NCBI GenBank assembly: GCA_963802255.1
Contig: CAWDHY010000002.1
Location: forward strand, 183,480 to 247,479
Direction of reading: 5' to 3'
DNA: 64,000 nt
Origin: Candidatus Magasanikiibacteriota bacterium
GTDB lineage: Bacteria > Patescibacteriota > Patescibacteriia > Magasanikbacterales > GWA2-37-8
Shown here one piece after another: positions 11,746-53,365 of this stretch (position 1 is the first letter of the stretch; every line of letters begins with the position of its first letter). Below the pieces are notes generated by a model that worked only from the letters and a program-made list of their open reading frames with translations, was not told the origin of the DNA and searched no databases. The translations under genes and the position numbers were made by a program.

Positions 11746-13194
11746 ATGAAAAAGTTTCAGGTCATTTTAATAATTTCAGTTTCATTATTGATAAATTTTT
11801 TTTATTTATCATCTCCTGCTAAAGCGACAGACTACAAATCATGTTGTATGTGCCTGATCACGGACCCTTCCGGCATGGGAAACGATAGCTGGGTTTTGCC
11901 TATCGGCACTACAGATTTAATTACCGATGCTACTCAATGCACTAATAGCGGTGAATTTGGCGTCAGCTGTATGCTAATGCCAAATGAAAAGTGCGGAGAA
12001 GTGGTTAAAGAAATGACTAAGCTGGAAGATGAGTTTAAATTTAAGGATATTGTTTTGGGAGTAACCATCCCCAACCTGCAGTTCAGCCCGCCTCCGACCC
12101 AAGTTGACACGGAAGGAAACATCTATATCCCCTGGCTGGCGGAATATATCAAAGCCCTCTACAACTTTTTAGTTGTTGCCCTAAGCATTGTGGCTGTTGT
12201 CATGATCATTGTTGCCGGAACGCAAATAATTGCTTCTGCCGGCGGGCCGGCAAAAGCCGCGGGATATAAGCGAATTACTCAAGCCGTGATCGGCCTTCTT
12301 CTCGCTTGGGGCTCATATTTCATAATGTATACAATAAATCCAAATCTGACTTCTTTCCAACCTCTAAAAATTGCATTTGTCGAAAAGAAAGATATCACCG
12401 GTGTGGAAGAGGTCGGGCCGTCAATTTCAAAATCTGAAATACTGGCTATCATCGACCAAGTTTCGAGTGAATCAGGTGTAGACAAGTGTATTCTTGAAAC
12501 AATAGTGGCAAAAGAATCGGGTTATAAATCAAACCGAATCGGTCATGATGAAGATGTACCGCGTACCCAAGTGGGATCTCGAGTAAAATTTATTAAAAGC
12601 GGCGTAAAATATAACGGGGAAACTTTTACTCCTTCTCCCAATTTATATACTGACAAGTCGTTAAAGAATAATGACAGTTACAAACCGAATGAGCCACCAA
12701 ACTATGGTTTGGACCCCAGATTTACTCATGGTGGTGGATTAGGCCAATTTACGGTACTTATTGATAAATCAACCAAGGAGATGACCCGCTGTCCGGATGG
12801 AAATATCGGCCGGACCATCGCGGGTGAATGTTATACTTTTCCTGAATTAATGGAACCAAAAACGGCAGTCGAACTTTCTGCAAAATTAATTAAAAAAATC
12901 GGAACAACTAACGTAGAAAAATTATTCTATAGATATGCCGGCAAAGGTTGCAGCGCACGTGTTTCCCAGTGCCGAAAAATGAAAGCTTATGCTGAGTGCA
13001 AAGGAGATCCGGATATTGCGCGAAATGAAATTCCAGGCGATTGCAAAGCTTGGTTAAAAGAATCATTTGCAAACTGTTCCAACCCTTCATATAGAAATCC
13101 CATGTCTCAGCCAACGCCTGACGATAAAACGGCTGAAAAGGAAGCAGATCAAGCAATTGATGAAGAGCTCGGTCAGAGCATCCAAAATTATTAA
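11746..13194 (+). CDS. secreted Cys-rich protein with a TrbC/VirB2-like pilin hydrophobic segment fused to a lytic transglycosylase-like (SLT/VirB1-like) C-terminal domain
   Basis: Signal peptide, Cys-rich region, hydrophobic core LVVALSIVAVVMIIVAGTQIIASAGGPAKAAGYKRITQAVIGLLLAWGSYFI, then AKESGY...GGGLGQFT resembling the SLT E-S / GLMQ motifs. Confidence 0.45.
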   Translation: MKKFQVILIISVSLLINFFYLSSPAKATDYKSCCMCLITDPSGMGNDSWVLPIGTTDLITDATQCTNSGEFGVSCMLMPNEKCGEVVKEMTKLEDEFKFKDIVLGVTIPNLQFSPPPTQVDTEGNIYIPWLAEYIKALYNFLVVALSIVAVVMIIVAGTQIIASAGGPAKAAGYKRITQAVIGLLLAWGSYFIMYTINPNLTSFQPLKIAFVEKKDITGVEEVGPSISKSEILAIIDQVSSESGVDKCILETIVAKESGYKSNRIGHDEDVPRTQVGSRVKFIKSGVKYNGETFTPSPNLYTDKSLKNNDSYKPNEPPNYGLDPRFTHGGGLGQFTVLIDKSTKEMTRCPDGNIGRTIAGECYTFPELMEPKTAVELSAKLIKKIGTTNVEKLFYRYAGKGCSARVSQCRKMKAYAECKGDPDIARNEIPGDCKAWLKESFANCSNPSYRNPMSQPTPDDKTAEKEADQAIDEELGQSIQNY

Positions 13195-13324: not shown

Positions 13325-14668
13325 ATGAGCCGTAATAATACAGTATTTGTATGTTCGAATTGCGATGCCCAGTTTCAAAAATGGACGGGTAAATGTTTAG
13401 AATGCGGACAATGGGGCACGATTGATAAAAATCCTGTCAGCATCTCATCAAAAAATGAAAATAAACAAGAATTTGCGCCGGCTAAAATATCTGCACTTTC
13501 AGAAATAAAAAGTGAAAATATAGCACGAACGAAAACAAATATCGGCGAACTGGACCGCGTGCTCGGCGGCGGTCTTGTCCCCGGCTCTCTTATTCTTCTT
13601 GGTGGCGAGCCTGGTATCGGCAAATCAACACTGGCACTTCAACTCGCTGCCATTTTACCGCAGGCCCTTTATTTGTCCGGTGAAGAATCAGCCGAGCAAA
13701 TCAAACTGCGTTCCGATAGATTAAATATAAAATCGCAAAATCTCAAAATCGGCAATGAATCAAATATTGAAACGATTATCGCGACCATAAAAAAGGAACG
13801 GCCGGTTTTAACCGTCGTTGATTCCGTGCAAACCATCTACTCGAACGACTCCGAGGGCGAAGCAGGCAATCTCGCGCAGGTCCGCGCCTGTACCGTAAAA
13901 CTTATGGAACTGGCAAAAAGCGAACGGCTTACAATTGTTCTGGTCGGCCAGGTGACAAAAGAAGGCACGGTCGCCGGTCCAAAGACATTGGAACATCTGG
14001 TGGACACGGTTTTGTATCTTGAAGGCGACCGCTTTCATCAGTTCAGAATTCTGCGCGCCGCTAAAAATCGTTTCGGTTCAACCGATGAAGTCGGTGTTTT
14101 TTCTATGGAAGAAAATGGCTTGCAGGAAGTAAAAAATCCTTCGGCCGCATTTCTGGGCGAACGGGCGGAAAACGCCCCCGGTAATGTCGTGGCATGTTTA
14201 ATGGAAGGCTCGCGTCCCATCCTCTGTGAAGTGCAGGCACTGGTAAGTAAAACGTCTTTTGGCTATCCGGTGCGCAAATCAAGCGGCTTTGATTTAAACA
14301 GATTACATATGCTGGTTGCCGTACTTGAACGCCGTGCCGGATTAACACTTAGTCAATATGACATTCATTTAAATGTGGTCGGCGGACTTTCAGCCGATGA
14401 ACCGGCCGCAGATTTGGCAGCGGCACTGGCCATTGCCAGCGCATATAAAGACAAACCACTTGGTTCGGATATGGCCGCTTTTGGTGAAATTGGGTTATCA
14501 GGCGAAGTACGACCCGTTTCATTTACGGAAAAACGTCTTAAAGAATGTGAACAGCTTGGACTAAAACGGGCACTGACCAATTTGGGGAAAAAAAATGCCG
14601 GACTAAAAATGAAAGTGTTAAAAATAGTGGATATAAAAAATATCCAGGAAATCATAAAACATACATAA
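13325..14668 (+). CDS. radA: DNA repair protein RadA/Sms
   Basis: N-terminal C4 zinc finger (CSNCDAQF...CLECGQWG), Walker A GGEPGIGKST, KNRFG motif, Lon-like C-terminal domain. Confidence 0.9.
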   Translation: MSRNNTVFVCSNCDAQFQKWTGKCLECGQWGTIDKNPVSISSKNENKQEFAPAKISALSEIKSENIARTKTNIGELDRVLGGGLVPGSLILLGGEPGIGKSTLALQLAAILPQALYLSGEESAEQIKLRSDRLNIKSQNLKIGNESNIETIIATIKKERPVLTVVDSVQTIYSNDSEGEAGNLAQVRACTVKLMELAKSERLTIVLVGQVTKEGTVAGPKTLEHLVDTVLYLEGDRFHQFRILRAAKNRFGSTDEVGVFSMEENGLQEVKNPSAAFLGERAENAPGNVVACLMEGSRPILCEVQALVSKTSFGYPVRKSSGFDLNRLHMLVAVLERRAGLTLSQYDIHLNVVGGLSADEPAADLAAALAIASAYKDKPLGSDMAAFGEIGLSGEVRPVSFTEKRLKECEQLGLKRALTNLGKKNAGLKMKVLKIVDIKNIQEIIKHT

Positions 14669-14683
14669 ACATAAAAAAACAAA

Positions 14684-14717
14684 GCCGCCTTGGAATAAAT
14701 CCTTGGCGGCATTTTTT
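14684..14717. terminator. intrinsic terminator (gccgcc...ggcggc hairpin plus T-tract), usable by radA (+) and the convergent GC-rich gene (-)
   Basis: GC stem flanked by an A-tract upstream and TTTTTT downstream. Confidence 0.6.
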
Positions 14718-14744
14718 ATAAGAGGTTTTGGGAAGTTTTGTGGA

Positions 14745-15183
14745 TCAGTCGGCTGGAGTGGCGTGGTTTTCCGTGTCTGGCGTGAAGTCATCGACCTCGA
14801 TGCACGGATGCTTTATGACCATCAAGGCCAGGTCGTGCTTGAAAGAGTCAATGCCCGGAACGATGTGGTGGAAATCCGGCGATAAGTCGCGCTTCTTTTT
14901 GTTGCGCAACTGCAAAGCTTGGCACTCATATATCGCCTCCAGGTCGCTCAGTCTGCGAAAGACGATCCGCTCGAGTTCCACCTGCATGTCACGGCCGTTG
15001 CGTCCTGCCCTACCAAACGCCAAAACCGTTTTGCCGTTGAGCTTGAGCGGAGTGCAGCGCACCCACAGTGGTCTCATGTCTTGCCCGCCTTTGTGTTGCA
15101 CCATTGCAACCACAAAGTCATTCCCCGCAGGATCGAAAGCGTTCTCCTTTGGCGGTAAACCCGCCCATACTTGTCTGCCCATT
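14745..15183 (-). CDS. hypothetical protein (about 146 aa) in a GC-rich island; likely start MGRQVWAGL
   Basis: Strong SD (aaaggaggagagaagaATG) and promoter TTGACG N17 TATTCT at 15261-15289; the antisense plus-strand ORF is Ser-rich low complexity and was rejected. Confidence 0.5.
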
Positions 15184-15200
15184 CTTCTCTCCTCCTTTAA

Positions 15201-15212
15201 ATGAACGTTCAT
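15201..15212. promoter_or_regulatory. perfect 12-bp palindrome ATGAACGTTCAT between promoter and SD of the GC-rich gene (candidate operator)
   Basis: Self-complementary dodecamer in the 5-prime UTR. Confidence 0.3.
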
Positions 15213-15260
15213 GCTCCTGTCAGTGCAGTACATCCGCACCGACTTGAAAGCACAAAGGAG

Positions 15261-15289
15261 AGAATAGCATAAAAAAACATCGTCGTCAA
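15261..15289 (-). promoter_or_regulatory. sigma70-type promoter TTGACG N17 TATTCT
   Basis: Hexamers with 17-nt spacer on the minus strand, overlapping the 3-prime end of recG. Confidence 0.45.
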
Positions 15290-15296
15290 TACTTCA

Positions 15297-17390
15297 CTAT
15301 TCCAGATGGGTGGTTTCGCCCCATTTCGCTATCAAACGGCTAATTATCGGATATTTATCCAAATTTTTTGCGATATAAACAGCCGCTTCCCGTGTTTTCT
15401 TAATAATTTCTTTATCAGTAAGCTTGGCTAATCTCAAATTCATTAAGCCGCTCTGAACAGTTCCGTACACTTCTCCGGGCCCACGGGTCTCCAAATCTTT
15501 TTCCGCAAGTTTAAAACCATCAATATTTTTTTCAAAAAAAGATAGCCGGTCTCTGGTTTTGTCCGAATTTGATCCGGAAAACAGGAAACAATACGACTGA
15601 TAAATAGAACGACCAACACGACCGCGAAATTGATGAAGCTGAGCCAAGCCAAATCTTTCGGCTCCTTCTATCATCATCACGGAAGCATTTGGCACGTCAA
15701 CGCCAACCTCGACCACCGAAGTGGACACCAGAATATCAATTTCTTTTCCTTTAAACTTTTTCATCATCAGTTCTTTTTCAGCCGATTTTAATTTTCCGTG
15801 CAAAAAACCTACGCGTAAATCCGGAAAAATATTTTTTGATAATTTTTCATATTCATTCATCACACTTTTTTTCTCATACTGTGAAGCCGGAAAAAAATCA
15901 TAATTAACCGGCACAAAATCATCCGTCTGCGCGGTTTCAATTAAAGGACAAATCACAAATACCTGTCTTCCGCGCTTCACTTGGCCGCGAATAAATTCAT
16001 ACGCTTTCTCCCGGTTATTAGGATCTACCAATCGGGTGATGATCGGTTTTCGCCCGGCAGGCATTTCATTGATCATGGATAAATCAAGATCCCCGTAAAT
16101 CATTAAAGCCAATGAGCGTGGAATGGGAGTGGCAGTCATGCTTAAATAGTGGGCGGAAATATCAGCGGTCTTGTCCTTGATGGCTTTTCTTTGAGCAACA
16201 CCGAATCTATGCTGTTCATCAACTATTATTAAACCGACATCTTTAAACAAGATTTTTTCCGAAAGCAAAGCATGTGTTCCAATTATAATTTTTATTTTCC
16301 CGCTATTTATCAAATCAGTCATTTTTTTCTTTTTCACCTCTTCTTCCCCAAAAAAAATCTGTGATCTGGTAAAAAGGCCTGTTTTTATCTTAGAGCCTAA
16401 TATTTTTTTGATTGATTCAAAATGCTGACGGGCTAAAATTTCTGTCGGTGCCATTAGCACGGCCTGATACCCGTTCAGCACTGTATTTAGTATGGCGATT
16501 GCTCCCACGATTGTTTTACCCGAGCCAACGTCGCCTGAAAGCAGACGGTTCATTGGCGATTCACTGCCCAAATCTTTTAATATTTCCCAGGCCGAAACCT
16601 TTTGGCTTTTCGTTAGTTTAAACGGCAAATTTTCAACAAGATTTTTAACGGCGCTTTCTTTGAACTCCATGGCAGGCGCTTTGCTTAAAGACAATTCACT
16701 GCGCGTAAGTTCAGCCCTGATATGCAGACGAAATAATTCATTAAATTTCAAGCGGTCAGTGGACTGTTTTAAATCTATTTCATCTTTGGGGAAATGAATA
16801 CCGCGCAATGCGTCTTCAAGCGGAATAAGATCAAAATGATCTAACATCTCATCCGGTAAAAAATCCTTCATACCTTGGATTGCCGGCAATGATTGTGTAA
16901 TTAAAAATCTTAATTGCTTTTGAGTTACACCCTCGGTTGATGGATATATCGGAATAAGCCGCACAATATTAGCCGTCTCCGTATTATTAACTTTTTCATA
17001 CATCGGACTGACAAACTGCGGGCCAAGCATGTCAGCTTTCACTTTACCGGATAAAAAAAGCATGTCTCCAGGTTTTAAATTTTTTGCGATAAACGGCTGA
17101 TTAAACCAGACTACCCGCACACTGCCGCTGTCATCGGTTACCATGGCGTTAGTCACAATTTTTCTGCTGCGAAAACTGCGCCTATTCGCCACAAGTTCAA
17201 GACGTCCGCAGACTGTTATTGAATCACCTTCGCTTATTTTGCCAATCGGCACAATACGACGGTAATCTTCATAGCGGAAAGGATATAAATTCAATAAGTC
17301 ACCTGTATTTCTTATACCAAGACGTCCCAGCCGTCTGGCCAGGGTTGTTCCTACTCGATTGAGTTTTATAATCGGCGTTGATAAATCCAT
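15297..17390 (-). CDS. recG: ATP-dependent DNA helicase RecG
   Basis: Wedge domain, helicase motifs (GDVGSGKT, DEQHRFG, QLHQFRGRVGR), 697 aa. Confidence 0.9.
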   Translation of the reverse strand: MDLSTPIIKLNRVGTTLARRLGRLGIRNTGDLLNLYPFRYEDYRRIVPIGKISEGDSITVCGRLELVANRRSFRSRKIVTNAMVTDDSGSVRVVWFNQPFIAKNLKPGDMLFLSGKVKADMLGPQFVSPMYEKVNNTETANIVRLIPIYPSTEGVTQKQLRFLITQSLPAIQGMKDFLPDEMLDHFDLIPLEDALRGIHFPKDEIDLKQSTDRLKFNELFRLHIRAELTRSELSLSKAPAMEFKESAVKNLVENLPFKLTKSQKVSAWEILKDLGSESPMNRLLSGDVGSGKTIVGAIAILNTVLNGYQAVLMAPTEILARQHFESIKKILGSKIKTGLFTRSQIFFGEEEVKKKKMTDLINSGKIKIIIGTHALLSEKILFKDVGLIIVDEQHRFGVAQRKAIKDKTADISAHYLSMTATPIPRSLALMIYGDLDLSMINEMPAGRKPIITRLVDPNNREKAYEFIRGQVKRGRQVFVICPLIETAQTDDFVPVNYDFFPASQYEKKSVMNEYEKLSKNIFPDLRVGFLHGKLKSAEKELMMKKFKGKEIDILVSTSVVEVGVDVPNASVMMIEGAERFGLAQLHQFRGRVGRSIYQSYCFLFSGSNSDKTRDRLSFFEKNIDGFKLAEKDLETRGPGEVYGTVQSGLMNLRLAKLTDKEIIKKTREAAVYIAKNLDKYPIISRLIAKWGETTHLE

Positions 17391-17500: not shown

Positions 17501-17501
17501 G

Positions 17502-17573
17502 TGCTCCCGCTAGGAGTCGAACCTAGATCTCCAGCTTCGCAGGCTAGTGTCCTATCCATTGAACGACGGGGGC
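17502..17573 (-). tRNA. tRNA-Arg (anticodon GCG)
   Basis: Cloverleaf on the minus strand: acceptor GCCCCCG/CGGGAGC with one C-A mismatch, D arm GTTC..GGAC, anticodon loop CU-GCG-AA, T arm CTAGG-TTCGACT-CCTAG; CCA not encoded. Confidence 0.75.
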
Positions 17574-25403: not shown

Positions 25404-25569
25404 TTGCAGGGGCGAAAGGCGAACCTTAATGCCTTTGGTGATGTTAAGGGCCGATCGCCTCCTGCAAATAATACCTTAGCATAAAAAACTAAAAATATCA
25501 ATGGGCGGCTCCCTCTCAACTACTTGTGTCAATCCTATATTTCGACGCCTAAATTTAAGAAATAAAAAA

Positions 25570-25805
25570 GGGGCCACTCCGAAAAACGATCGGAGGGGCC
25601 CCATACCTGTATCTTGCCGCTAATCTTGTCTGTGACACTGCCCGTCATGTTTTGACAACAACCTGGGAGGGTTTTGACGCGACACTGCCGCTAGCGGTCT
25701 TTTCCGGGCGATTTCTTCCATGACTTCTTCCACGGTCGCCCAGCGCACTCCAACAGGCATGGAGCGCCTTTGTAAAGGAGCGGTACTTGCTCTGACCTGC
25801 TGCAA
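25570..25805 (-). ncRNA. GC-rich transcription unit of about 235 nt bounded by promoter and terminator; candidate small ncRNA, or alternatively a 46-aa small ORF (MPVGVRWATV...)
   Basis: Minus-strand promoter TTGACG N17 TAGACT (25811-25839); terminator ggggccactccg...cggaggggcccc plus T-tract (25563-25604); internal hairpins and direct repeats of GGCAGTGTC and GTCAAAAC; no ORF starts downstream of the predicted transcription start with a good SD. Confidence 0.3.
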
Positions 25806-25810
25806 CAAAT

Positions 25811-25839
25811 AGTCTATCACAGAGCTTTTTTGTCGTCAA
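25811..25839 (-). promoter_or_regulatory. sigma70-type promoter TTGACG N17 TAGACT
   Basis: Hexamers with 17-nt spacing on the minus strand. Confidence 0.45.
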
Positions 25840-26008
25840 GAAAAGCTATAAAAAGCAAAAACCCCGTGTCCAGAGGGCACGGAGTTTTGCAGCACTAAGT
25901 TCTTAACATCACGAAAATACTATAGCACAAATTATCCATCTTGTCAAGTCCGGCAAATAGAGATAGAATAAAAAATGGGCCATATCAGGGCTTTTATTTT
26001 ACAGAACT

Positions 26009-46554: not shown

Positions 46555-47745
46555 TTATTTAATAATTTTTGTTACCACGCCAGCGCCGACGGTTCTGCCG
46601 CCTTCGCGGATGGCGAATTTCATTTTTTCTTCAATGGCTACCGGTTTAATCAACTTCACGTTGAAATTGATAGTGTCACCCGGCATAACCATTTCTGTTC
46701 CTTCCGGCAAAATAACTTCACCGGTAACATCGGTAGTTCTGATATAGAACTGCGGTTTATAACCTTTGAAGAATGGTTTGTGCCGACCGCCTTCTTCTTT
46801 GGTCAACACAACGACCTGGGCCTCAAATTCAGTATGAGGATTGATAGTGCCCGGTTTGGCCAAAACCATACCGCGCTCTACTTCTTCTTTCTTGGTACCG
46901 CGAAGTAAAATGCCTGCGTTATCACCGGCCTGACCTTCTTTCAAGCTCTTATTAAACATTTCAATGCCGGTAACAACTGATTTCATTTTTTCTTCATTCA
47001 AGCCAACGATTTCAATTTCATCGTTGACATGAATAATACCGCGCTCAACGCGTCCGGTAACCACCGTTCCTCTACCTTCAATAGAAAAGACATCTTCTAC
47101 TGGCATAAGGAAAGGCTGGTCAACAGCGCGAACAGGTTCCGGGATATATTCATCAACAACTTTCATCAACTCCATAATCGGCTTAGTGGCCGCTTCATCG
47201 GTCGGATTCTGCAAAGCTTGCAGAGCTGAACCGCGGATAATCGGAGTGGTGTCGCCCGGAAAATCGTATTTTTTTAGTAAGTCGCGAATTTCCGCTTCAA
47301 CTAAATCAATCAGTTCCGGATCAGAAACTTGATCAACTTTATTTAAGAATACAACGATGTGCGGTACGCCCACTTGTCGGGCAAGCACAATGTGCTCCCG
47401 AGTCTGCGGCATCGGTCCGTCAGCAGCGGAAACAACTAAAATCGCGCCGTCCATTTGAGCCGCGCCGGTAATCATGTTCTTCACATAATCGGCATGACCG
47501 GGACAATCTACGTGCGCGTAGTGTCTCTTTTCCGTTTCATACTCAACATGGGCGGTGGAAATGGTAATGCCTCGAGCTTTTGACTCTGGCGCTTTATCCA
47601 AATCATCAACGCCTTTTGTTTGCGCGGTCATACCGCGCGCGCTTAAAACCGCCAAAATAGCAGCGGTAAGAGTTGTCTTACCGTGGTCAACATGGCCAAT
47701 AGTACCAATGTTGACATGTGGCTTGGTTCTTACAAACTCAGCCAT
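46555..47745 (-). CDS. tuf: elongation factor Tu
   Basis: [22 protein letters not shown] motifs. Confidence 0.95.
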
Positions 47746-47886
47746 ATGGTTCAATTTTTACGGCACTGCCGCCAAGTGGTTGGTGCAGATTTGTTAACCA
47801 GCCGCTTCACAAATATGTATATAAAATTAAATTGTTCAGATTCGGCACTAAAAACCTTAGAGCCGCCTGCTCCAATTTATTACGAG

Positions 47887-48525: not shown

Positions 48526-48564
48526 AGAAAAGAAAAACCCCTGTGCTTTGAAGAAACACAGGGG
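48526..48564 (-). terminator. intrinsic terminator for the coiled-coil gene (cccctgtg...cacagggg plus T-tract on the minus strand)
   Basis: Perfect 8-bp GC stem followed on the minus strand by TTTTTCTTTTCTGTTT. Confidence 0.65.
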
Positions 48565-48589
48565 CAAAATGTTTGAAGAAAAACTTTGG

Positions 48590-49828
48590 CTAGCTTGAGG
48601 GGGAATGTTGCTTGAGGGTGGACATGGCCGCCGCGATCTCGTCCTGTAGGGTCGTTTGCAAAGCCTCTTTCGCTTTGGCCATCCTGTTCCTGGCCTCAAC
48701 GATCGCCTTCTGCATGGCAGCGGTTTCCATATCACACTCGGCCACGACGGCCAGCTTTTCATCCTGCTTTTGTTTCAGAATGGACCGACGGGAAGAGAGG
48801 TCTGCGAAGAGACTGGAAAGCTCGGACTCGACGCTCCTGATGTCCTGCATGACTTTGGCATGCGATACGCGCAAGCCCGCGAGCTCCTTGCTTTTGTCAA
48901 CCAGGTCTTCGCGCACAGTCGCCAGCTCTCGCGTCTCGTAGGTCAGCCTGGAAATCACTCCCCGAAGCAGGTCGTTCACCAGCTGCCTCGCCACGATCAC
49001 CGCGTTGTTCTCGTTGACCTCATCGGCCATTACTGCAAGCGACTCGTTGTCGGGGAAAATGATACCCACTTCGGAAAGAGCCTGACTGATCAGGCGGCTG
49101 TCGCGCAAACGACCGCCTTCGGTCGCCGAATTGGCGACTACGATTCTTTCTTCGGCTGACTCCATCTGACGGAAAGCCGCCGCTTCTGCCGCTTCTGCTT
49201 CGCGCAGACGCGTTTCGGCTTGCTCTCTCCGCGCGGAAGCCGCCTCGAATTTCTCTTGAGAGAGAATCTCGGTCGCAATCGCGTCACGCTCGGCGTTTTC
49301 AATATCCGCCTTCAATTGGTCAATCTGATGATAGACTTCTTCGAGCTCGATACGCTTCTGTCCGATGGCCTGATGGCCCTGCATGATCTTGTTGGCCAGC
49401 ATGTCCAATTCCTGAACACGCTTGTCCATTTCTTCGAGCGCTTTCTCACGGCTTCTTTTGGAAGTCGATCCGGCCATCAGCCGTTCAACGGTTTCCTGAA
49501 GCGCCACGAACTCTTCCGATTCCTTGCCGATCTTGAGGATGAAAGCGACATACGAACAGACCTGGGGTGGCTTTACCAGCCGGACGTTCTTGGCGATGAA
49601 TTGCCGAATAACCCATATCGCATCATCTTTTTCCACCCGTTCGGGCTGAAAAATATGCGCGAACACCTCACAAAGGTTGTGCTCGAATTCCTTGTTGACA
49701 CTGCGTAGGAGGCCTAGCAAGCGGTCGGCGTCATCGTTCGTGGGCGGTCTGGGCATCTGAGCGAAGAGCATTACCAGCAAGCTGATAATCTCGTCTTTTG
49801 AGTACTCCGTTTCCCTGTTTTTTGCCAT
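48590..49828 (-). CDS. GC-rich (about 53-57% GC) 412-aa protein: about 110-aa N-terminal globular region followed by an about 300-aa coiled coil
   Basis: Single long ORF across the GC-rich island; SD aaagggtga 5 nt before the ATG; heptad-like E/A/R/L-rich sequence. Confidence 0.6.
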   Translation of the reverse strand: MAKNRETEYSKDEIISLLVMLFAQMPRPPTNDDADRLLGLLRSVNKEFEHNLCEVFAHIFQPERVEKDDAIWVIRQFIAKNVRLVKPPQVCSYVAFILKIGKESEEFVALQETVERLMAGSTSKRSREKALEEMDKRVQELDMLANKIMQGHQAIGQKRIELEEVYHQIDQLKADIENAERDAIATEILSQEKFEAASARREQAETRLREAEAAEAAAFRQMESAEERIVVANSATEGGRLRDSRLISQALSEVGIIFPDNESLAVMADEVNENNAVIVARQLVNDLLRGVISRLTYETRELATVREDLVDKSKELAGLRVSHAKVMQDIRSVESELSSLFADLSSRRSILKQKQDEKLAVVAECDMETAAMQKAIVEARNRMAKAKEALQTTLQDEIAAAMSTLKQHSPSS

Positions 49829-49898: not shown

Positions 49899-49927
49899 AC
49901 CCTAACACAGCTGTGAATCATTGTCAA
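49899..49927 (-). promoter_or_regulatory. candidate promoter TTGACA N17 TAGGGT for the coiled-coil gene
   Basis: Good -35, weak -10. Confidence 0.3.
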
Positions 49928-50796: not shown

Positions 50797-52872
50797 TTAT
50801 TTCTTTTTACCCTCAATAATTTGTTGCGCTACATTGTTCGGCACATCGGCATAATGTGAAAATTCCATTGTTGAGCTCGCTCTGCCTTGCGTCATATTGC
50901 GCAAGGAAGTGACATAACCGAACATGCTCGCAAGCGGCACTTTGGCTTTCACCACTTTCATCTGTCCGCGGTCAAACATTTCTTCCACTTGGCCGCGTTT
51001 TGAATTTAAGTCGCCAATAACATCACCCATAAACTGTTCCGGGGTCAAAACTTCAACCTTCATCACCGGCTCCATAATCACCGGGTTGGCTTTTTTACAA
51101 GCCGTCTGGAAGGCCATTGAACCGGACATTTTAAAGGCAGCTTCAGACGAATCAACCTCATGATACGAACCGTCATAGCACGTCACCTTCACATCCACCA
51201 CCGGATAACCAGCCTGAACACCGCGAGTCAGAGATTCTTTTACACCCTTTTCCACTGCCGGAATATATTCACGGGGAATCACGCCACCCTTAATTTCATC
51301 AACAAACTCAAAACCCTTGCCCGATTCCTGCGGTTCAACACGCAACCAGCAATGACCATATTGACCGCGGCCTCCGGACTGCTTAACATATTTACCTTCA
51401 GCTTCGGCCGAGGTGCGGATGGTTTCTTTATACGCGACTTGTGGATTGCCGACATTGGCTTCCACTTTAAATTCGCGCTTCATGCGGTCCACAATAATGT
51501 CCAAATGCAATTCGCCCATGCCGGAAATAATTGTTTGCAGTGTCTCTTCATCGGTATGCACTTTAAATGTCGGGTCTTCTTCAGCCAACTTTTGCATGGC
51601 CATACCGATTTTTTCCTGATCGGCTTTCGTCTTCGGTTCAATAGCAATTGAGATGACCGGTTCAGGAAAAGTAATTTTCTCCAAAATTATCTGATGATTT
51701 TCATCGCAGAGAGTATCGCCGGTCACGGTCGCCTTCAAGCCAATGGCCGCGGCGATTTCACCGGCGAAGACTTCATCCACGTCTTCACGGTGATTGGCGT
51801 GCATGCGGACAATTCGTCCGATGCGTTCCTTCTCACAGCTGGTGGAATTATATATATATGAACCGGCGCTGACCTTGCCTGAATATACGCGGAAGAAAAT
51901 TAAACGGCCGACGAACGGATCGGTGGCAACTTTAAAAGCCAAAGCGGAAAAATGTTCATCATCATCAGCGCGCCTGGTAATTTCAGCGTTTGTGTCCGGA
52001 TCAATCCCCTGAATCGGAGGCAAATCAGTTGGAGCCGGCAAATACCAAACTACAGCATCAAGCATCAACTGTACGCCCATATTTGAAAGAGCCGAACCGC
52101 ACATTACCGGAAAGATATCTCCGCGCAAAATCATCTCACGGATGTTGTTTTTTATTTCATCAACAGATAATGTTTCGCCGTTCAAAAAATGATTCATCGT
52201 TTCATCATTTGCTTCAGCCACTTTTTCTAACATGATATTGCGAAATTTCTGAACTTTTTCCGTCAGGTCATCAGGAATAGAAATTTCCGTTACATTTTCG
52301 CCATTCTTACCTTCAAATTGAAACGCTTTATTTTCAATCAAATCAATAATGCCGGTATAGGATCCCTCTGCCCCAATCGGTAGCTGGATGGCTATGGCAT
52401 TTTTTGATAATCGTTCCTGAATGGAATCCAGACTCATATAAAAATCAGCTCCCATTTTGTCCATCTTATTGATGAAGGCAATACGCGGAACATCATATTT
52501 GTCAGCCTGATGCCAGACTGTTTCCGATTGCGGTTCCACGCCCTGTGAGCCGTCAAATACAGCCACAGCGCCATCAAGCACGCGCAAAGAGCGCTCCACC
52601 TCCACGGTAAAGTCAACATGGCCGGGAGTATCAATCAAATTTATACGGTGACCCTTCCAAAAACAGGTAGTCGCGGCTGAAGTAATAGTAATACCGCGCT
52701 CTCTTTCCTGCTCCATCCAATCCATCTCTGCCGCACCTTCGTGTACTTCACCGATTTTATGTTTTTTTCCGGTGTAAAAAAGCACGCGCTCGGAGATAGT
52801 GGTTTTACCGGCATCAATGTGGGCCATAATGCCGATATTTCTTGTCTTATCCAATGGATATTCACGAGGCAT
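50797..52872 (-). CDS. fusA: elongation factor G (start [25 protein letters not shown])
   Basis: GTPase motifs [21 protein letters not shown]; five-domain length. Confidence 0.95.
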
Positions 52873-52888
52873 ATATATGTGATTAATT

Positions 52889-53365
52889 TTATTTTGCGAA
52901 TCTTGCAAAGTGAGCGAAGGCCTTGTTGGCTTCAGCCATACGATGTACATCATCGCGCTTTTTTATGGCATCACCTAATCCTTGCGACGCTTCATTTAAT
53001 ACAGTAGCAAGCTTCTCCAGCATCGGCTGGCCTTTTTTGGCGCGTGCCGCATCAATAATCCAGCGGAAGGCAAGCGCGTTCTGTCGTTCGCCGCGCACCG
53101 GCAACGGCACCTGATAGTTGGCGCCACCGACGCGTTTGGAACGGACTTCCACTTGCGGGGCGACAGTGCGGATTGCTTCTTCAAAAATTTTCACCGCGTC
53201 CTTCTTGGTTTCCGCGGAGATTTTATCCAAAGCACCATAAACGATAGCTTGTGCAGTTGATTTTTTACCGCCAAGCATTACATAATTGATAAATTTTCCG
53301 AGCAAAGCGTTGCCGTATTTTGCATCCGGCTGTGGCAGTCGCTTTGGGGCTTTTTTTCCACGCAT
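52889..53365 (-). CDS. rpsG: 30S ribosomal protein S7
   Basis: 158 aa, S7 signature. Confidence 0.9.

Follow-up and report, generated by a model that had tools for sequence, protein, structure and literature searches.

The morons of lambdoid prophages (the Hendrix/Juhala concept) are promoter–gene–terminator units of deviant base composition that lie between conserved genes. Hypervariable islets and idiomorph-like loci (pherotype, serotype) are replaced by homologous recombination through their conserved flanks, and free-standing homing endonucleases lie between conserved genes of T-even phages. The genomes of the Candidate Phyla Radiation (CPR; Patescibacteria), bacteria with a symbiotic lifestyle, are small, streamlined and rich in orphan genes, which are common in this group. 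Here we describe a GC-rich single-gene unit located between radA and recG in a 64-kb stretch of DNA from a Candidatus Magasanikiibacteriota bacterium (64,000 nucleotides of contig CAWDHY010000002.1; hereafter, the window). The gene encodes a protein that we call X. Comparison with loci in other contigs, designated by L numbers, indicates that the unit is resident in its slot, that it occurs as deeply divergent alleles exchanged by homologous recombination, and that every allele is GC-richer than its host.

The locus shares properties with several of the systems above. As in a moron, a lone small gene has a sigma-70-type promoter and an intrinsic terminator to itself, the composition is deviant, the neighbours are conserved genes, and the unit varies between otherwise similar genomes. 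Unlike a moron, it lies in the chromosomal core (flanked by radA, recG, a clpB-type gene and a LytR-type gene) with no prophage genes or viral homologues, its alleles hold the same slot across a clade, and its GC deviation persists rather than marking one recent event. Idiomorph-like loci are resembled in the depth of allelic divergence, in the position of the breakpoints within conserved flanking genes and in a distribution that is incongruent with that of the core genes. In contrast to those loci, X stands alone as one small cytoplasmic protein, unaccompanied by partner, receptor, toxin or biosynthetic genes, and it has a consistent excess of G and C at third codon positions (GC3).

A single gene with its own signals fills the radA–recG gap

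The radA–recG gap of the window measures 629 bp and is filled by one discrete unit. As an earlier, sequence-only reading of this DNA had proposed, the unit is GC-rich, and its open reading frame (ORF), promoter, Shine–Dalgarno (SD) sequence and terminator could all be located. The features of the locus are as follows.

13325..14668, plus strand: radA, which is convergent with X and forms the conserved right-hand border of the slot
14684..14710, bidirectional: intrinsic terminator, GCCGCC..GGA-loop-TCC..GGCGGC, between an A-run (14671-14683) and a T-run (14712-14717)
14745..15182, minus strand: coding sequence of protein X, 145 amino acids plus a TGA stop
15189..15196, minus strand: SD sequence AGGAGGAG, GGAGG core at 15195-15191, 8 nt before the ATG
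15201..15212, no strand assigned: leader palindrome ATGAACGTTCAT (12 bp, perfect), considered to be due to chance
15211..15253, minus strand: leader stem-loop with an outer 7-bp and an inner 10-bp stem and the loop AUGUA, at or near the predicted mRNA 5' end
15261..15289, minus strand: predicted X promoter, -35 TTGACG at 15289-15284, 17-nt spacer, -10 TATTCT at 15266-15261
15297..17390, minus strand: recG, the conserved left-hand flank, on the same strand as X and directly upstream of it

The flanking genes were assigned through their relatives. The radA product is 79-86% identical in amino acid sequence to those of genes with RadA-type Pfam matches (Zn_ribbon_LapB, AAA_25, Lon_C/ChlI), and the recG product is 62-70% identical to those of genes with RecG_wedge/DEAD/Helicase_C matches. 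Protein X has 145 residues; the length of 146 given previously includes the stop codon.

Four sequences, those of the window, L001, L007 and L008, were compared in all frames. The X frame is the sole frame open in each of them, with a ratio of nonsynonymous to synonymous differences per site (pN/pS) of 0.25, and the corresponding ratio of substitution rates (dN/dS) among the four is 0.10-0.24. The remaining five frames gave pN/pS values of 0.37-1.6 and contain stop codons in some or all relatives. A 158-amino-acid ORF on the plus strand (14728..15204) was rejected as a shadow: it is open only in the window, is interrupted by stops in L001, L007 and L008, and has a pN/pS of 0.37. The cassette has one ORF only and shows no two-gene toxin/antitoxin layout. 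On the basis of the frame-specific dN/dS, the profile-level homologues and the confident AlphaFold2 model described below, X is a genuine gene under purifying selection, and its signals predict that it is autonomously transcribed.

GC islands in AT-rich genomes are often structured non-coding RNA genes, and a GC island with its own promoter, terminator and stable leader hairpin could in principle be one of these, with an incidental ORF. Against this stand the frame-specific purifying selection, the protein homology detected at 25-40% identity and the confident structural model; moreover, the fold of the 573-nt transcript has a z-score of -0.84 against shuffled sequences, and Rfam searches of the unit and of the whole window returned three tRNAs only. 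For X itself we regard a non-coding RNA gene as refuted, its likelihood being close to negligible.

The sequence-only reading had held that X shares its terminator with radA, and the hairpin indeed folds equally well on the two strands (-18.7 and -18.6 kcal/mol; z -4.2 and -4.8). It is overlooked by a simple scanner because of a 2x2 internal loop. All relatives have an equivalent hairpin, which in L016 has been replaced along with the cassette. Direct reading of the sequence likewise confirmed the strong SD (AAAGGAGGAGAG, with 8 nt separating the GGAGG core from the ATG), and a GGAGG-type SD lies at the same distance in relatives.

The promoter previously proposed for the unit, TTGACG-N17-TATTCT, begins about 8 nt past the recG stop codon. 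It matches the consensus at nine of 12 positions, and its T-rich 17-nt spacer ends in TG, forming an extended -10 element. Sites of the TTGACG-N17-TATTCT type are, per kb, no more frequent than chance (1 seen vs 1.5 expected). A stricter class, TTGAC-N15-TGnTAnnnT, is represented by eight sites in the window against an expected 0.05, an excess of about 160-fold. Because of this excess the class is taken to be native to the genome: it is, as judged from its over-representation, the host's own putative strong-promoter class, and the X gene carries one of its members. The same architecture directly follows the recG stop codon in all ten loci for which the upstream region was read (the window, L001, L007, L008, L010, L013, L015, L016, L017 and L096), and it has been kept in the nine other loci although the surrounding sequence cannot be aligned. 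The proposed promoter has thus held up, with the additions that it has an extended -10, is of a native class and is retained in relatives.

The X family occupies one slot in one subclade

The order recG–X–radA, with X and radA convergent, was found in each of the 11 loci in which both flanks could be read: the window, L001 (with L002-L006), L007, L008/L009, L010 (with L011 and L012), L013/L014, L015, L016, L017, L096 and L176. L177, a twelfth contig, is not long enough to cover both flanks and is outside this count. The wider synteny is also constant, comprising LytR, a 168-amino-acid membrane protein, recG, X, radA, a secreted protein, a thioredoxin-like protein and ClpB, and X persists at the same slot down to 25% identity. 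The sequence-only reading had called the cassette foreign-looking; since the ORF is conserved at the same locus in CPR relatives, in 11 of 11 loci, a one-off foreign insertion is refuted by that reading's own criterion.

Relatives of X are rare. When 1.84 billion cluster representatives were searched exhaustively with phmmer, only 11 proteins were retrieved at E <= 1e-3, the distant homologues scoring between 3e-16 and 5e-4. None of these 11 lies outside the family, and all those with a readable context are at the radA/recG locus. Profile searches of 5.8 billion sequences gave 8-9 matches. Each 90% cluster of relatives has a single member, and overall only about 18 relatives were found among billions of proteins. 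No X homologue was detected in IMG/VR (three X queries) or, by tblastn, in INPHARED and PLSDB. Peptide patterns of the allele type present in the window (type A, see below) found no match in GTDB representative contigs, because those representatives carry other allele types. The X family is confined to one Candidatus Magasanikbacteria subclade, where it was found only in the convergent radA/recG slot. At the borders of the unit there is no integrase or transposase gene. The only candidate for flanking direct repeats, an A-rich 34-nt pair with 74% identity, was judged to be due to chance.

The convergent radA/recG arrangement is itself found widely among Magasanikbacteria and in related CPR. 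Of the more distant Magasanikbacteria, some have an empty slot (8-77 bp; L019, L022, L031, L041 and L112), and in others it holds different small GC-rich ORFs (L021, L023, L025, L026, L029, L064, L099, L103, L104, L110 and L111). These ORFs encode 65-153 amino acids, have GC3 values up to 0.87 and are unrelated to X; none matches the X profile, and they were rejected as members of the family. Where their upstream DNA was read (L021-L064), a TTGAC promoter closely follows the recG stop codon in most cases. In L043 the slot contains a csp-like gene, and in other CPR lineages (L032-L038) it has a 3-methyladenine-glycosylase-like gene, which lies on the radA strand. Evidently this is a permissive slot that has been occupied repeatedly.

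A second family of small GC-rich ORFs, which we call Y, was noted directly upstream of recG in three loci (L010:5351-5761, L013:131-577 and L015:119-532). Its members have 136-148 amino acids, the motifs KIPxLP...RPVMRF...PTCAEV and GC3 values of 0.49-0.62. They have no similarity to X and were rejected as paralogues. Y is absent from the window, where a tRNA-Arg gene (17501-17573) lies at this position, and there is no further copy of X or Y elsewhere in the window.

Evidence for exchange of alleles at the slot

Among the main lineages RecG is 61-70% identical. X is 72-84% identical within type A, which comprises the copies of the window, L001, L007 and L008, and 25-43% identical between types. 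The clearest comparison is that of L001 with L016, in which RecG is 96% identical and RadA 93% identical, whereas X is only 31% identical. At the nucleotide level these two loci are 95-100% identical until about 80 nt before the recG stop codon, 23-57% identical over the following ~700 bp, which contain the promoter, leader, ORF and terminator, and 82-100% identical again from the radA stop codon onwards. A blastn alignment of the two contigs gives, in order, a block at 97.4%, no match, a block at 86.4% (radA), no match (the C-terminal part of the secreted protein) and a block at 94.0%, the first of these spanning 5.3 kb up to the cassette edge. This pattern is what we interpret as the footprint of an imported recombination tract.

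The distribution of allele types is in keeping with exchange. Within a clade formed by L001, L007, L016 and L176 (RecG 84-96% identical), type A is present in L001 and L007 and type E in L016 and L176, the two type E copies being 79% identical to each other, so that the division into A and E does not follow the ranking by RecG. Type A is found again in the window genome, where RecG is only 63-66% identical to that of the clade. RecG identity and X identity are correlated with r = 0.29, and the RecG and RadA identity rankings disagree; this incongruence between alleles and core genes was assessed from pairwise identities.

These observations bear on the alternative that X has been inherited purely vertically, with extreme episodic variation in rate and no exchange. 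Small lineage-specific proteins often evolve fast, and the dN of type A X (0.09-0.15) is similar to that of recG. Such a history would have to accommodate the L001/L016 pair, in which the entire cassette, non-coding parts included, is unalignable beside 5.3 kb of 97.4% identical DNA and the adjoining radA falls to 86%, as well as the disagreement between RecG and RadA and the allele types that cross the RecG grouping. We regard it as very improbable. The comparisons instead establish a multi-allelic locus whose alleles, to judge from the alignments, have been exchanged by homologous recombination. The replaced tract runs from ~80 nt inside the recG 3' end to the radA stop codon, and it therefore includes promoter, leader, ORF and terminator. 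Taken jointly, this anatomy of the unit and the exchange of its alleles are, in our view, highly probable.

Two further observations were made in the vicinity of the tract. The secreted, type IV secretion system pilin-like protein of 482/493 amino acids encoded beside radA (11746..13194, plus strand, in the window) has a C-terminal part of ~280 codons that cannot be aligned between L001 (7856-8787) and L016, and the radA gene lying between the two variable segments is 86% identical in nucleotides, compared with 94-97% outside. This suggests that both variable segments and radA could have arrived as one imported tract of ~3 kb. In addition, L008 looks like a mosaic, with 90% identity to the window at the RecG end, 97-98% identity to L001/L016 at the RadA end and a type A X between them. 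L008 (ENA NODE_19585, coverage 1.1x)/L009 may have arisen by natural recombination, or it may be a chimera assembled at low coverage.

Base composition of the cassette

X has a GC content of 0.555, compared with 0.426 for the window, and a GC3 of 0.678 against 0.42 +/- 0.07 over 65 window ORFs (z 3.7). Under the codon usage of ten core genes, the GC3 expected for the amino acids of X is 0.437, as against an observed 0.683 (z 6.4). Only one other ORF of the window is as extreme, at 48590..49828, and its third-position composition is almost identical to that of X, so that the sequence-only reading was right in noting a contrast shared with another GC-rich cassette. The excess is not peculiar to the window. 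GC3 is 0.50-0.87 in every X locus, compared with 0.30-0.40 in the flanks, or 0.53-0.57 in the GC-richer L013; every X allele is GC-richer than its host.

Several causes of the excess were examined and rejected. Amino acid content would give a GC3 of only 0.437. Translational selection is not indicated, as the tuf, ribosomal-protein and fusA genes have no preference for G/C-ending codons. Global mRNA structure is discounted by the z-score of the full transcript given above. GC-biased gene conversion acting as a gradient is not seen either, since recG shows no rise in GC3 toward the slot and radA barely any. In the L001–L007 pair the synonymous divergence (dS) of X is about half that of the flanks (0.40 vs 0.62-0.92), which hints at possible constraint on synonymous sites. 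The GC excess may arise from selection, from biased conversion specific to the cassette, or from a separate gene pool.

A strong compositional contrast is also what a gene recently acquired from a GC-richer organism or a mobile element would show, and for such an import one could further cite the orphan protein, the self-contained promoter and terminator and the slots that are empty in L019, L022, L031, L041 and L112. It is difficult to reconcile with the presence of X at one slot in all 11 loci read, with a promoter of the host's over-represented class, with the lack of mobility genes and with the failure to find a homologue outside the clade or in phage, plasmid and viral collections. A single old import would, in addition, be expected to ameliorate, and the GC excess has not been ameliorated in any lineage. 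We consider a recent foreign origin highly improbable. What survives of the cassette-like description is an autonomous unit with alleles exchanged among related lineages; the idea that it was imported from another type of organism is unsupported, given its native promoter class and the absence of homologues beyond the subclade and in those collections.

Two other GC-rich segments of the window deserve mention. The ORF at 48590..49828 (minus strand, GC3 0.678) encodes a coiled-coil-like protein of 412 amino acids and lies between fusA (50797..52953) and tuf (46555..47754). It has a promoter motif of the same class as X at 49899-49927 and a terminator hairpin near 48540-48565, and its product has no Pfam family and no IMG/VR homologue. 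This ORF probably represents the same phenomenon in a second conserved slot. The stretch at 25500..25950 (minus strand), between genes for 762- and 501-amino-acid proteins, reaches a GC content of 0.527 and contains two TTGAC-N15-TGnTAnnnT promoters (25811-25839 and 25919-25947), ORFs of no more than 66 amino acids and no Rfam match. It could be another small cassette, or an RNA of no known family.

The leader hairpin and the palindrome

If transcription starts about 7 nt past the -10 element, from whose position the start site was deduced, the X leader is ~70 nt long. An 83-nt leader sequence folds at -27.7 kcal/mol with a z-score of -4.24, none of 200 shuffled sequences being equally stable; a separate test of the leader fold gave a z-score of -2.9. 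Across nine loci, RNAalifold recovered nine base pairs, seven of them with compensatory changes. A stable 5'-proximal hairpin is present in every X locus read, and although the sequences differ between allele types, types with unrelated leaders have a strong hairpin at the same place. A GCGGAUG motif on the loop side recurs among types that are merely 30-40% identical in protein. A 5'-terminal hairpin of this kind would most simply stabilize the mRNA, and it might conceivably serve as an autoregulatory binding site. Sequestration of the SD by a 5' CUCCUUU heptamer, which was seen in some folds, was not relied on, because the heptamer lies within ~7 nt of the -10 element and is probably upstream of the transcription start.

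The sequence-only reading had drawn attention to an operator-like palindrome in the leader. The perfect 12-bp site does exist; an operator role was rejected on account of its frequency and lack of conservation. Perfect 12-bp palindromes number 18 in the window against 17.5 expected. In the close relatives L001, L007 and L008 the site is degraded to ATAAACGTTCCT, ATGAACGTTCTT and ATGGACGTTCAT, with symmetry lost in all three, and it is absent from the other allele types. The search for further copies that had been recommended was carried out within the window and found none at up to one mismatch. The GAAC/GTTC half-sites resemble the halves of a Cheo box; the spacing is wrong for a LexA box. 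The palindrome is thus best read as a chance feature, and the predicted leader hairpin is the better-supported cis element.

Predicted structure of X and its possible functions

No family could be assigned to X, as the sequence-only reading had anticipated. Searches of Pfam and NCBIfam gave no match at E <= 10 other than a spurious one to Zwilch (0.25), PADLOC and PHROG searches gave none, and a sequence-profile search of the PDB was equally empty. In the literature on the radA/recG locus or on the X family we found no description. A hydrophobic segment is not present in any family member. X is a small cytoplasmic protein of a previously undescribed family.

An AlphaFold2 model built from a 14-sequence alignment has a mean confidence (predicted local distance difference test, pLDDT) of 80.4, with a core of about 90. 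Residues 1-20 form a disordered tail, 23-75 contain five strands and 78-123 four helices, and the chain closes with a short C-terminal strand. In the family alignment (A5) the helical region is an insert that varies from 0 to ~60 residues, and within the barrel G32, G57-R58, D65 and D80 are invariant and D22 and F75 nearly so. H125-P126, near the C-terminus, is also nearly invariant and belongs to an HPC(I/V)x(V/I)D motif, which forms the HPCIEVD strand in the window protein. The only recurrent structural matches of the model, all partial, are to SH3-like barrels, namely the integrase C-terminal domain, Tudor, Sm/Hfq, Cren7/Sac7d, KOW and WYL domains. Like these barrels, the modelled X domain is five-stranded and spans ~55 residues. 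Most family members are basic: the pI is 9-10 in 13 of 17 of them, and 7.0 in the window protein. On the strength of the model we tentatively propose that X may be a nucleic-acid-binding module with a five-stranded SH3/Sm/Tudor-like barrel, in which the variable helical insert would be the diversifying part. Cold-shock genes offer another parallel, as they too combine a small barrel with a strong promoter and a structured leader. X differs from them in having no cold-shock domain match in Pfam, in being hypervariable, where Csp proteins are highly conserved, and in its GC excess.

The conserved residues could be viewed in another light, since D65, D80, R58 and H125 might together form an active site. 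X could then be a selfish homing-type gene that cuts loci lacking it or carrying another allele and co-converts their flanks. Such a gene would be expected between conserved genes, with its own promoter, a distinct composition and polymorphism in both presence and replacement, as is the case here, and the last ~80 nt of recG have been co-converted. Yet no GIY-YIG, HNH, LAGLIDADG, PD-(D/E)xK or other nuclease signature was detected in Pfam or NCBIfam and the model has no nuclease fold match, while the alleles diversify, under purifying selection in all types, instead of one sequence spreading. A homing function therefore seems to us very improbable.

The most serious rival is that X is an accessory factor of recombination or repair, for example a DNA-binding modulator of branch migration by RecG/RadA or of natural transformation, possibly expressed from a damage-responsive promoter. 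X is linked to recG and radA in every locus read, its basic barrel has weak similarity to SH3-like domains that bind DNA and to the WYL domains in the damage-response regulators PafBC and CapW, the same slot holds the glycosylase-like gene in L032-L038, and the half-sites of the palindrome are Cheo-box-like. However, RecG and RadA are conserved at 62-96% whereas X diverges to 25%, and a dedicated partner should co-evolve slowly. In many relatives that share this recG/radA pair, the slot is empty or is taken by unrelated ORFs, among them the cold-shock gene of L043, so that the linkage may reflect a permissive slot rather than a function. The palindrome, as noted, is neither conserved nor spaced as a LexA box. 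On balance we judge a repair role to be unlikely.

Discussion

The reading that we favour, with moderate confidence in it as a whole, is that X is a resident, hypervariable cassette, swapped by recombination and encoding a putative small-barrel nucleic-acid-binding protein. Four points weigh against it. First, there is no linked partner gene, phage gene or defence-system model (PADLOC, PHROG). Second, divergence within type A (X 76%, RecG 66%, RadA 84%) fits plain vertical descent, with dN values between the window and L001 of 0.13 for X, 0.27 for recG and 0.12 for radA; exchange is for this reason claimed between types and not for the window copy. Third, the contigs are metagenomic, and strain chimeras are conceivable at a hypervariable site, to which it can be answered that the L001 haplotype is found in nine independent contigs and that L016 and L176 lie on contigs of 771 kb and 79 kb respectively. 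Finally, there is no GC3 gradient into the flanks, and the GC excess is not accounted for by the causes tested.

Hypervariability together with allele swapping would fit a fast-evolving interaction, such as conflict with phages or with a partner organism, or self/non-self recognition. A role of this kind is possible, and we hold it to be rather doubtful. A broader proposal would be that radA/recG, and perhaps other slots such as fusA/tuf, are dedicated landing or exchange sites for single-gene cassettes of a class not described before, GC-rich and equipped with promoters. The X family would be one member of this class, and the cassettes would be kept as balanced, trans-specific polymorphisms because they serve conflict or recognition. 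The cassettes would then act in phage exclusion, host–partner specificity or self/non-self discrimination of incoming DNA, and their GC excess would reflect an evolutionary regime particular to the cassettes, whether selection on synonymous positions or a distinct replicating or gene-conversion pool. We think this proposal decidedly unlikely.

The findings are of use beyond the function of X. The TTGAC-N15-TGnTAnnnT pattern provides a usable promoter model for this CPR genome. A resident gene with a lasting GC3 excess over an AT-richer host is a small test case for the maintenance of GC content in bacteria, in which synonymous-site selection and biased gene conversion are still candidate causes, and in which our tests argue against expression-linked codon preference and foreign origin. 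If X is no more than a quickly evolving orphan and the intergenic slot simply a permissive one, the case is ordinary. If a conflict or recognition role is true, a soluble protein of 145 residues would offer a handle on strain-level interactions in an uncultured phylum. What sets the locus apart is an unusual combination of strict fidelity to one slot, swapping of alleles between near-identical genomes and a GC excess that is never ameliorated. It is a clean and well-delimited case from the CPR, in which small GC-rich genes with full native expression signals are found again and again in one slot between two core repair genes.

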